Position numbers and translations under genes: made by a program | Shown: positions 23,015-38,214 of the stretch, one piece after another | Numbering within the stretch: the stretch's first letter is position 1 | Layout: each line of letters starts with the position of its first letter | Notes under the pieces: model-generated | The model's database searches: none | The model's input: the letters and a program-made list of their open reading frames with translations, nothing else | What the model was told of the DNA's origin: nothing | Assembly: GCA_020353515.1 (NCBI GenBank) | Contig: CP070695.1 | Coordinates: forward strand, 2,294,866-2,358,865 | From: Candidatus Heimdallarchaeota archaeon | GTDB lineage: Archaea; Asgardarchaeota; Heimdallarchaeia; Hodarchaeales; Hodarchaeaceae | DNA length: 64,000 nucleotides | Reading direction: 5' to 3'

Positions 23015-23482
23015 TCAGCTTCGACTTTTTTCGTGTTCCTCCTTCCTTAATCTGGTACTACTTTCCAATGAACCATCAGTACGAACTACACGGGGTACAA
23101 TGATTATTGTGAGCTTTGACTTTCCTTTTGAGGTACGTAAGCGATTAATGGTATTTGCTCCAGAACAGGTTTCTTGGGACACAATTAGAGCACCTAACTT
23201 TGCATCACTGGCTAAATTTCTATCCATTCCAGGATTTTCTATACGAGTTATTTGACATTGCGTTTTCCTTTTCGAGAAGAAAGTTTCAACTGCAATCCGA
23301 CGGACTTGGAAACTTTGGATAATCTCGCTGTAATTTTTGTGGATTTTATCTAAGTAACTTGGACTAATCAATCCAACATGGACATTTTGTCCGTAGTGTG
23401 CAGCAATATCGAGAAAAAGCTTGTGTCCCATATGTAAGCGATCGAATGTTCCACCTAGTCCAACATTTTCAAATTGTCTCAA
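23015..23482 (-). CDS. coaD: Phosphopantetheine adenylyltransferase (archaeal/eukaryotic type)
   Basis: GGTFDRLHMGH, IVSQET, INRLR and SSTRLR. Confidence 0.9.
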   Translation of the reverse strand: MRQFENVGLGGTFDRLHMGHKLFLDIAAHYGQNVHVGLISPSYLDKIHKNYSEIIQSFQVRRIAVETFFSKRKTQCQITRIENPGMDRNLASDAKLGALIVSQETCSGANTINRLRTSKGKSKLTIIIVPRVVRTDGSLESSTRLRKEEHEKSRS

Positions 23483-23569
23483 ATTTTAATCTCCATGAAT
23501 AAGTTCATGGCTTCCTGACTTTTATGAAAGGAAAAATTTATGAATTAAATTAACATTGTTATACCAGCC

Positions 23570-23847
23570 ATGAAGGAAAAAATTCTGCTTTTCGAGGACC
23601 AGAGGATGTATATGAATCTTGGTGCAAATAAGCAGAGAAATCCAGAGCTATTTAATCCGATAAGATTAGAAGACGGGCTCTCGCACGAGACTGGGTGTGT
23701 CACCCAACAATGAGCGTTAGGGTTAACCCTTCTAACCGACAGGATTACTGGATCGTTAAAGCCCTTCACAAGAGAACTCGGTTGAATAAGGCCTAATGGC
23801 TGAATATGTAGCTGAGAGTTAGTGTCTAGGGCTACAGATCCTTTCAT
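23570..23847 (+). ncRNA. Large structured ncRNA with H/ACA pseudouridylation-guide hairpins
   Basis: Hairpin 23583-23637 with bipartite pocket TTCGAGG/GCAAAT and an ANA 14 nt downstream; 3' hairpin AGCCCT/AGGGCT followed by ACA; BRE/TATA-like GAAAAATTTATG ~30 nt upstream. Confidence 0.72.
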
Positions 23848-23929
23848 TTAGAATTTTTAATCATTCAGAGAGAACTCATAACAAAGAGAAATAGAATAAT
23901 AATCGGAGTTTTAATTCTAATTAAAAAGA

Positions 23930-23964
23930 TGTGCAGGTGTCCTGCCGATCCTGCACAAAAAAAA
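23930..23964 (-). terminator. Hairpin flanked by T/A tracts downstream of dnaG
   Basis: TGTGCAGG...CCTGCACA 8-bp inverted repeat followed by TCTTTTT on the minus strand. Confidence 0.45.
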
Positions 23965-23971
23965 TTGAAAC

Positions 23972-25216
23972 TTATTCAGAAAAAGTATAGACATCTATAT
24001 CTAAGGGTTTCTTTGTAACATCGTGTTGTTTAGCACCAACAATAGTTTTTATTCCTCTTTCTGATGCAACATCGAGAAGTCTTTGGGTGATTATCCCATT
24101 GAAAATTATTGCTGTTACATCTTCTGTCTCGAGAATGATGTCACGAAGTTCACTGATAGCTATGTGTTCTTTTAAAATTTCAGATTTCGATCCAAGTAAA
24201 ATGGCTTCTTGTTCTGAGAGATTTTCAAGAAATTGGGCAAAATTACGTGGAATTTTTGACATCATGGAAGAACTCGGTTGAGACCTAACGATGATTGGGA
24301 TTTCTTTTGGTTCTGTTTCTGACCGAGACTTGTTTGAAGATTCATCTGATTCAATGTCTTCTGGGGAGATATTCATTTCTTTCATAATTTGTTCAATTGG
24401 GATTTTAGTACGTAAGGATTTTAGAAGCTCTTTGCTAGATAGTTCTTCAACTTCTCGATTCGGGGGAGCCCTGGCAACATAATCTAAGTCAGTAAGATGA
24501 ATGAGCTCTCGGAGAATAAGATCACCACCATGGTCACCATCTAAAAAGGCGGTGGTTACTTTTTTTCGAGAGAGTTCAATAACATCAGGAGGCACATTAG
24601 TTCCTTGTACAGCAATCACATTTCGAAAACCATGTTTTAAAAGATTGACAACATCAGCTCGTCCTTCAACGATAATTAAATTGTCACTATCTTGAATACC
24701 TGGACCAGCTGGTAAATCCTCTTTCCCATATTTTTGAATAATACTAATACGAGCCTCTTTTAGAACTTCATCTAAAACAGAGATGGAATCAGGAGCTACT
24801 TCATGATCCCAAGTTTTTAGAATCTGAGATGCACGAGTAATAATCTGCCTACGTTTACTTTCACGAACATCTTCTACTTTTAATAAAGAGATCTTTCCAA
24901 CACAAGGTCCAACACGATCTACAGTTTCCAAAGCAGCCGCAAGCAAAGCTGTTTCGACTCGATCGAGTGATGATGGGACGATAATGGTTCCTGTAGTTTT
25001 CCGTTGTTTTTTTTGGTATTGTAATTTTACAGCAATTCTTCCTATTCTTGATGTTTTTTGCAGTTCTCGTAAATCTAATCCCTCACCAATTAATCCCTCG
25101 GTTTGACCGAACAATGCTCCAATAATATCTGAGCGCTCTGCCACACCGTTAATACTAAATTTTTCATGGATAAGATACTTTACAGTTGAAGTATCGATAT
25201 CCTCTTCGTTTACCAT
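23972..25216 (-). CDS. dnaG: Archaeal DnaG-type primase / exosome-associated DnaG
   Basis: GALFGQTEGL, TOPRIM VEGRADV and DGDHGG; start at MVNEED after SD GAGGTGA. Confidence 0.95.
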   Translation of the reverse strand: MVNEEDIDTSTVKYLIHEKFSINGVAERSDIIGALFGQTEGLIGEGLDLRELQKTSRIGRIAVKLQYQKKQRKTTGTIIVPSSLDRVETALLAAALETVDRVGPCVGKISLLKVEDVRESKRRQIITRASQILKTWDHEVAPDSISVLDEVLKEARISIIQKYGKEDLPAGPGIQDSDNLIIVEGRADVVNLLKHGFRNVIAVQGTNVPPDVIELSRKKVTTAFLDGDHGGDLILRELIHLTDLDYVARAPPNREVEELSSKELLKSLRTKIPIEQIMKEMNISPEDIESDESSNKSRSETEPKEIPIIVRSQPSSSMMSKIPRNFAQFLENLSEQEAILLGSKSEILKEHIAISELRDIILETEDVTAIIFNGIITQRLLDVASERGIKTIVGAKQHDVTKKPLDIDVYTFSE

Positions 25217-25636
25217 GGTTGTTTCACCTCCAATAGTCGCTAGGTGAAACTGCATATATCATTATGATTGGTAAATTTTCTTTCATGGTGTACTACTATT
25301 TCTTAAGTGAATTAAATGTATAAGTATAATAATAATAATGGTGATATGCGGTTCCACTTGCGCAATTGTCTTTAATTTGTGTTTTAATGATTTTTAATCA
25401 GTGTCAAGTTGATTGAAATTGCCTCATGGATCAACATCACCTTTAAGTGGTGATTTTTTTTGGAATGAAATTTGATTCTATTCCTTCTACTACAAGTCCA
25501 TAGAGGCTCTTTTAAATATGAATTTTTTTGTGAATAAACCTGCAGGACAAGGATTTATTCATTTTGCTTGCTATAGTAACACAAGAATTCCGAGAATTTT
25601 AAATTATGGGTACAAGGAAAAAATAAGCAGAAATTT

Positions 25637-33049: not shown

Positions 33050-33123
33050 TGGGTTCGGAGGGATTTGAACCCCCGATCTTGCGCGCCCCAGGCGCAGATC
33101 CTACCAAACTAGACCACGAACCC
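33050..33123 (-). tRNA. tRNA-Pro(GGG), no intron
   Basis: GGGTTCG/CGAACCC acceptor; tgcgc-CTGGGGC-gcgca anticodon arm; GTTCAAATC T loop. Confidence 0.95.
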
Positions 33124-38110: not shown

Positions 38111-38214
38111 CGGACTCGGGGGGATTTGAACCCCCGACCCTCTGCTGGCTCTTCAAAATCAAATTAAGATTAGAATAGGAGGCAGATGCTCTATCCAAGC
38201 TAAGCCACGAGTCC
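38111..38214 (-). tRNA. tRNA-Arg(CCT) with a 29-nt canonical 37/38 intron (38147-38175)
   Basis: GGACTCG/CGAGTCC acceptor; tctgc-CTCCTA|A-gcaga anticodon arm. Confidence 0.93.

Follow-up and report, generated by a model that had tools for sequence, protein, structure and literature searches.

A conserved structured block between the coaD-like and dnaG genes

We analyzed a 64,000-nt stretch (the window) of a Candidatus Heimdallarchaeota metagenome-assembled genome (MAG; 4.94 Mb, 35.8% GC, contigs linked via 100-N runs), in which a cytidylyltransferase-like (coaD-like) open reading frame (ORF; 23015–23482, minus strand) and a Toprim/DnaG ORF (dnaG; 23972–25255, minus strand) flank an intergenic block. 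As the initial annotation had described, this block is GC-rich, with a GC content of 0.44–0.47 across 23600–23800 versus ∼0.30 in the flanks, and its plus strand folds at −86.7 kcal/mol (z = −2.97). The H/ACA sRNA gene that we place here occupies approximately 23567–23850 (∼280 nt) on the plus strand, with putative ends set by the onset of conservation and by T-runs. The RNA element is present in 21 of 21 same-genus genomes at 73–92% identity, and these sequences were used to build alignments A1–A4.

Upstream of the block, on the same strand, lie a BRE-like GAAAGG (23526–31) and a TATA-like TTTATGAAT (23537–45), which together form a putative promoter (23526–23545). In most of the 21 same-genus homologues, GAAAG(G/A) followed by a T-rich/TAAT block precedes the conserved 5′ block by 35–45 nt, so that the promoter-like motif noted earlier keeps its distance in relatives. 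The 5′ leader GC.AUGAAGGAA (23567–23578) is nearly invariant in alignments A1 and A2, and RNAalifold proposes a pairing of GGA (23575–77) with UCC (23642–44), in which all bases are invariant and no covariation signal is possible. At the other end, a T-rich tail (TTT, TTT, TTTTT; 23842–23858, plus strand) is a candidate archaeal oligo-T terminator: T-runs follow ACAGAUCC by ∼5–30 nt in most homologues, while the tail sequence itself varies. The 3′ tail after ACAGAUCC varies freely, and the end-to-end helix suggested previously, ATGAAGGA/TCCTTTCAT, is not conserved.

The block is also spanned in its entirety by an ATG-initiated ORF of 100 codons on the minus strand (23545–23847), which could in principle be a small protein gene whose RNA features are incidental. 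In the window this frame is indeed open over the whole block. A Pfam search gave no family for it, however, and the frame is broken in 20 of the 20 relatives tested, where the longest stop-free stretch is 38–79 codons; for these two reasons we consider it a chance ORF. Substitutions across the block moreover track base-pairing and not codons, leaving the small-protein explanation with practically no chance of being correct.

Assignment to the HgcG/Pab40 lineage

At gathering thresholds, an Rfam scan of the window returned two tRNAs only. As a separate observation, one window tRNA gene (38111–38214, minus strand) carries a 31-nt intron in its anticodon loop and the second (33050–33123) is intron-less. 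A permissive scan of 23400–24000 yielded HgcG (Pab40), RF00064, as the sole significant family, with a match at 23524–23841 on the plus strand that covers the whole 276-position model (24.5 bits, E = 7.6e-5). This score lies below the curated RF00064 gathering threshold of 77 bits, as does the score of a congener, G008 (26.1 bits), whose match again extends along the full model. Homologues from a sister family (hereafter f3) match the full model at 46.9–58.7 bits (E = 1e-10 to 1e-15), which is also under the 77-bit threshold. The size of ∼280 nt and the GC-rich, multi-helix fold resemble those of SRP RNA and RNase P RNA, the identities that the initial annotation had wished to see checked in Rfam. 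Neither matched the region at E values up to 10, and with HgcG as the only significant hit, another structured RNA of this sort is to our minds almost inconceivable.

To connect the window with more distant relatives, we built a covariance model, R1, from the central domain. Searches with R1 found full-length homologues in 13 of 31 f3 genomes, many of them 1–2 kb from dnaG; the window is tied to f3 by this model, by dnaG synteny and by motif 1 antisense strands that are identical in the two. A phylum-wide RF00064 search gave HgcG-like matches in six further Asgard families, with E values down to 1e-12. That search was lossy: G028, an f3 genome that scores 50.5 bits locally, was missed, as were all 14 control genomes, so the negatives of the search are uninformative.

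The stems covary within the genus, whereas the pocket strands, the GA dinucleotides and the ANA/ACA boxes stay constant. The order of motifs in the window, namely a guide for the peptidyl-transferase centre (PTC), an elaborated middle motif and a helix-69 guide, fits the HgcG consensus, and three blocks align with it directly: CGAGG/GCRA, GGGUnAACCCU and GUUA. Taken together, the HgcG match, the box positions and the covariation bear out the earlier idea of an H/ACA guide RNA on the plus strand. We hold with high confidence that the region is a three-motif tandem box H/ACA guide sRNA of ∼280 nt, a divergent Hodarchaeales member of the HgcG/Pab40/Pf7/Afu4 lineage.

The surroundings and copy structure of the element differ between genomes. 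The RNA and dnaG are convergent in the window, lie on separate contigs in G016 and G001, and are found 1–2 kb apart on the same strand at several f3 loci (L098, L100, L104; G024 C43, G042 C3), where a tRNA gene follows the RNA 60–75 nt downstream. In G009 (L012, C251, about 622–713 and 1501–1784) part of the 3′ hairpin occurs a second time (query 211–302, 89% identity), ∼800 nt from the full gene, and in G010 (L027, C13) ∼36 nt are inserted between motif 2 and motif 3 (alignment A1, columns 206–241).

Motif 1 and the peptidyl-transferase centre

The first H/ACA motif (23583–23640, plus strand) aligns to motif 1 of the HgcG consensus. Its lower stem P1 has 8 bp (23583–90/23630–37), its pocket is lined by a 5′ antisense strand UUCGAGG (23591–97) and a 3′ antisense strand GCAAAU (23624–29), and its upper stem P2 (23598–603/23617–23, with U23620 bulged) carries a sequence-perfect K-loop (23604–16; G23605-A23606, G23614-A23615). 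An ANA box (23638–40) follows 14 nt after the pocket top. The 8-bp stem, the pocket strands and the ANA at exactly 14 nt had all been described before, and all are conserved. Across the alignment, 89% of cells in the stems are paired versus at most 52% when the stems are slid, with four compensatory pairs; the pocket strands UCGAGGAC and GCAAA are invariant, as are both A's of the box in 22 homologues, its middle base being A, U or C. The K-loop, a candidate L7Ae site, has an invariant GA...GA flanking a 7-nt loop, 6 bp above the pocket, and in the f3 genome G028 a K-turn with a GAU bulge occupies the same place.

Since neither Rfam LSU/SSU searches nor universal motif searches found rRNA in the host MAG, which leaves the host rRNA absent from the assembly, we used the rRNA of relatives for target pairing. 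One candidate reference, the G001 LSU (L034, G001:C57:307–3242), was excluded as a probable contaminant contig, being only 65–70% identical to other same-genus LSUs; helix 69 and the PTC of this complete LSU also differ from those of the other same-genus LSUs. The G008 SSU (L042, G008:C9:1695–3919) is 2225 nt long with an insertion of ∼750 nt near 732 relative to congeners, which may be an rRNA intron. Positions 2721–2973 of the Rfam LSU model, its 3′ end, match ∼300-nt pieces that form separate contigs; some genomes have two such matches, and one lies within a large contig (G001 C52 and C45; two places each in G008 C8 and G002 C65; G010 C12:515019–515329). These pieces may represent a 3′ LSU fragment that is encoded separately or duplicated, or they may have arisen during assembly.

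The target predicted for motif 1 has the form rc(GCAA)-U-N-rc(UCGAGG). In the LSU of the same-genus genome G005, the sole canonical match is UUGC-UU-CCUCGA (4+6 bp) at the PTC, and G028, for which complete rRNAs were compared with its own guide, likewise has one match, UUGC-UA-CCUCGAU (4+7 bp), also at the PTC. Shuffled guides reached such a match in 83 of 2000 trials (4%) for G005 and in 7 of 2000 (0.35%) for G028. The initial annotation had expected the target string UUUGCUACCUCGA; the relatives' 23S instead reads CUUGCU(U/A)CCUCGA, with which the pocket pairs over 4+6 or 4+7 bp all the same. On its 3′ strand, motif 1 pairs over 4 bp only. The uridine it had named, equivalent to U2496/Ψ2865, has held up as a unique site in the same-genus LSU and the G028 rRNAs.

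The relatives' rRNA therefore supports as the predicted target of motif 1 the PTC uridine in CUUGC-U-N-CCUCGA, which corresponds to E. coli U2496, P. abyssi Ψ2588 and yeast Ψ2865. The E. coli number follows from a yeast–E. coli offset of 369, checked against m5C2870/position 2501, and the equivalence to P. abyssi Ψ2588 was established via aligned antisense strands. Yeast Ψ2865 is made by snR46 (PMC8307265), and P. abyssi Ψ2588 by Pab40 motif 1 (PMC2377435). If this reading is true, UUGCUNCCUCGA would be expected at the PTC of the host 23S. Because the same site is pseudouridylated in yeast and human rRNA, an ancient origin of this PTC modification is supported.

The central domain as motif 2

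Between the outer hairpins lies a domain of ∼120 nt that had been taken for a multibranch insert with no guide function. Judged by its sequence features, this domain is H/ACA motif 2 (23666–23741, plus strand) and stands in the place of motif 2 in HgcG/Pab40. It has a 7-bp lower stem P1 (23666–72/23729–35), two invariant strands, ACGGGCUCU (23673–81) and AGGGUUAACC (23719–28), a modelled upper helix (23682–84/23714–16), a covarying apical hairpin (23693–705) and an invariant ACA (23739–41). The ACA starts 14 nt after the modelled upper helix, counted from A23725, and 3 nt from the stem. A K-turn-like element, G23687-A23688 opposite AAU-GA (23709–13; G23712-A23713), is a putative L7Ae site; its GA/GA loop is closed by an invariant G-C pair and has the same orientation as the loops of motifs 1 and 3, though it is non-standard as a K-turn, with a 2-nt bulge and an ambiguous stem register.

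Compared across two families, 93.7% of cells in the motif 2 model are paired versus at most 48% when slid, and 15 of 26 pairs are compensatory, in an alignment that was fitted to the model. The lower stem, UUAGRAG/CUYCUAA, covaries within the genus and becomes CUACCA/UGGUAG in the other family, with five of its seven pairs compensatory between families. ACGGGCUC and GGGUYAACC are unchanged throughout both families, in contrast to all the other helices, which covary; this is a pattern expected of antisense elements. The HgcG consensus has GGGuAACCCu where motif 2 has the matching GGGU(C/U)AACCCU. As modelled, the pocket measures a small 3+4 nt, and it would be larger if the invariant GGCUCU/AGGGUY strands opened.

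These features bear on a different architecture, that of a eukaryote-style hairpin-insert-hairpin-ACA RNA in which the multibranch domain at the centre has no guide function and acts, for example, in rRNA processing. Such a proposal can draw on the central domain being the most conserved part of the RNA and having no assignable target. Against it stand the covarying lower stem, the invariant ACA at the canonical distance and the GA/GA loop, the position of the domain in the motif 2 place of HgcG/Pab40 with GGGUnAACCCU common to both, and the lack of conservation of the closing and terminal helices that the proposal calls for. Of the closing helix TCCAG/CTGGA only UCC/GGA is invariant, with competing partners available to the invariant bases, and the remainder is not conserved. 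No evidence was found for an rRNA-processing role of the central domain. The layout is the classical three-motif one of HgcG/Pab40/Pf7/Afu4, which overturns the earlier view that the RNA is closer to eukaryotic H/ACA snoRNAs than to archaeal guides, and we regard the eukaryote-style architecture as very improbable. Similarly, where no clear K-turn had been seen, there is a conserved K-loop in hairpin 1 and there are conserved GA-containing internal loops in motif 2 and hairpin 3.

A two-arm scan for a motif 2 target in same-genus rRNA was too noisy to leave an assignable site, and a long-complement scan of the central domain against rRNA was uninformative. Several individual candidates were rejected. 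Position 685 of the G005 LSU pairs over 8 bp with ACGGGCUC, but the site is not conserved in the congener G016, where the guide is invariant. The candidate GGGUU-UAGA-CCGU in the E. coli 2580 region is equalled by shuffled guides in 46–50% of trials. The E. coli 2586-equivalent, the rule-based target of Pf7/Afu4 motif 2, is a C in the G005 23S and therefore cannot be the motif 2 target in this genus. Two structural readings were set aside as well: a tRNA-like central domain was rejected by inspection, and a GGGUUAACCC mini-hairpin would be broken by a G to A change at 23721 in three species that keeps the U23679 pairing.

Motif 3 and helix 69

The third motif, with its outer clamp, spans 23750–23841 on the plus strand and aligns to motif 3 of HgcG. 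The clamp GGAUC/GAUCC (23750–54/23837–41) surrounds a lower stem P1 (23760–65/23828–33, plus CAC/GUG at 23767–69/23822–24), a 5′ antisense strand AAGAGAA (23770–76), an upper stem P2 (23777–82/23811–16), a K-turn-like UGAAU/AUGUA element (23783–87/23806–10) that is a putative L7Ae site, and a 3′ antisense strand AGUUA (23817–21). The ACA (23834–36) is invariant and lies 16–17 nt from G23818/A23817; the hairpin stem AGCCCU/AGGGCU followed by ACA is thus present as first described, and it covaries. Overall, 97% of cells in the motif 3 stems are paired versus at most 43% when slid, with four compensatory pairs, including one that belongs to the outer clamp. The clamp pairs in every sequence, with that one compensatory change and several wobble changes, and encloses the ACA in an internal loop. 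The short helices enclosing the ANA and ACA boxes could be a lineage-specific assembly or processing feature. In the internal loop UGAAU/AUGUR one G·A is kept and U·G replaces A·G in most species, and three congeners have a box C/D-like CUGA/UGAUG K-turn in motif 3.

Motif 3 corresponds to the helix-69 guide (E. coli U1915/1917) and descends from it, with a pairing that is atypical in the window's genus. Pab40 motif 3 acts on U2016 in stem–loop 69 (PMC2377435). Helix 69 in the window's genus reads GAGUAACUAUAACUCUCUUAAGG, and AGUUA of motif 3 still pairs with its UAAC(U). The invariant AAGAGA pairs with UCUCUU (1921–1926), 4 nt further downstream, leaving six bases unpaired. An alternative fit places motif 3 on the second UAAC repeat, with a canonical 4+4 bp at U1921. 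Canonical targets of at least 9 bp for motif 3 were not found in same-genus rRNA, the sole hit lying in the SSU insertion present in G008 only. The f3 genome G062 was paired by eye with helix 69 of G028, the sole f3 LSU used for this guide, and there motif 3 makes a canonical 4+6 bp match, GUUA with UAAC and AGCUCA with UGAGCU around U1915, with the ANA 16 nt from the pocket; Pab40 motif 3 addresses this same target. The third hairpin of G028 itself has no ANA adjoining the stem.

One speculative explanation for this shifted pairing, to which we give rather little credence, is that the third hairpin of Hodarchaeales was re-tuned jointly with the helix-69 3′ strand (CUCUCUU), moving AAGAGA onto 1921–1926 and off 1917–1922. 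The same-genus CUCUCUU strand presumably matches the eukaryotic helix-69 sequence. Were re-tuning true, there would be two possible outcomes: either the helix-69 loop pseudouridines would be made through an unusually large unpaired loop of 6 nt, or GUUA would sit on the second UAAC repeat so that U1921 is specified, which corresponds to yeast Ψ2264, a site known so far, to our knowledge, from eukaryotes.

The target searches for motifs 2 and 3 also raise an alternative for the RNA as a whole, in which motif 1 alone is a working guide in the genus and the other two motifs serve in protein binding or assembly, or as rRNA-folding chaperones. Neither motif has a canonical target of at least 9 bp in same-genus rRNA, shuffled guides do as well as the motif 2 candidate, and the G028 third hairpin is without an ANA next to its stem, all of which would follow if motif 1 were the only guide. 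However, the single-stranded pocket strands of both motifs show no change across 21 genomes, next to stems that covary, which points to a sequence-specific partner; the ACA boxes of motifs 2 and 3 are invariant as well. The by-eye match of G062 motif 3 to G028 helix 69 is canonical (4+6 bp), and H. volcanii sR-h45 modifies helix 69 even though more than two target bases stay unpaired, provided that its ACA is present (PMC7075261). We therefore think it unlikely, though well worth keeping in mind, that motif 1 is the only guide, and retain the three-motif reading.

Proteins and a proposed mechanism

The host genome encodes Nop10 (49.7 bits), a 345-aa frame with a DKCLD (Cbf5) domain and two proteins of the L7Ae family. 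Gar1 (PF04410) was not found in this 96%-complete MAG, using a model that also missed it in a Sulfolobus control and is possibly insensitive. From the sequence and from established H/ACA biology we infer that the RNA would be transcribed, assembled into an RNP and used for pseudouridine formation. In each motif, the lower stem and ANA/ACA box would recruit Cbf5-Nop10(-Gar1), and the K-loop or K-turn would recruit L7Ae. The rRNA would anneal to both sides of the internal loop, and the unpaired U held at the base of the upper stem would be converted to pseudouridine. The steps of this mechanism are carried over from established H/ACA biology; what we observe are conservation, covariation, box positions, family homology, complementarity to relatives' rRNA and the presence of Cbf5, Nop10 and L7Ae genes.

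Significance

The RNA is ordinary but unannotated, and since it scores under the Rfam threshold, pipelines leave its gene unmarked; describing it fills that annotation gap. It reveals no new kind of RNA and no eukaryote-like snoRNA architecture. New is the divergent Hodarchaeales member of a class that is itself well known, and what retains some interest is the shift of the helix-69 antisense element in hairpin 3. In the literature searched we found no description of H/ACA sRNAs in Asgard archaea, although the term 'H/ACA' itself was not directly searchable there. Hodarchaeales are the archaea placed closest to eukaryotes in published phylogenies, and the three-motif PTC/helix-69 guide RNA of Euryarchaeota is retained in them too.

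Comparison with known systems

The closest known system is HgcG/Pab40/Pf7/Pho40/Afu4, a three-motif box H/ACA sRNA (Rfam RF00064; Muller et al. 2008, PMC2377435). Like HgcG/Pab40, the window RNA packs three tandem H/ACA motifs into ∼280 nt. Its motif 1 has the antisense strands CGAGG and GC(G/A)A predicted to address the same PTC uridine (Pab Ψ2588), its motif 2 has extra structure and a GGGUnAACCCU strand ahead of the lower stem, and its motif 3 has the GUUA 3′ strand of the helix-69 guide (Pab U2016). A K-loop or K-turn element sits in each upper stem, and an AT-rich promoter precedes the gene, as is included in the HgcG model. The window RNA differs in scoring 24.5 bits against the 77-bit cut-off, in being an AT-rich mesophile sequence, in having an ANA and not an ACA in motif 1, and in placing the motif 2 ACA 3 nt from the stem. 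The motif 3 AAGAGAA of the window RNA matches helix-69 positions 1921–1926 and no longer 1917–1922, and its motif 1 and motif 3 boxes are enclosed by short outer helices (GGA/UCC and GGAUC/GAUCC).

Atypical pairing of the kind proposed for motif 3 has a precedent in Haloferax volcanii sR-h45, one stem–loop of which guides helix-69 positions 1940/1942 (E. coli 1915/1917) while leaving more than two target bases unpaired, and does so in an ACA-dependent manner (PMC7075261). This RNA has two stem–loops compared to three in the window RNA, its other target is Ψ2605 and not the U2496 equivalent, and it leaves four bases unpaired (UVUN) where motif 3 would leave six.

In yeast, the helix-69 guides snR191, snR3 and snR84 act at Ψ2258/2260, 2264 and 2266, respectively (PMC8307265). 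Together with snR46, these snoRNAs share with the window RNA the predicted targets of its outer motifs: motif 1 would act at the PTC U2496 equivalent and motif 3 on helix 69. Eukaryotic snoRNAs, however, are built as hairpin-hinge(H box)-hairpin-ACA, are bound by Nhp2 and are without K-turns, whereas the window RNA has three motifs, K-loop/K-turn elements and archaeal promoter signals. The resemblance to yeast snoRNAs is thus one of target, not of family.
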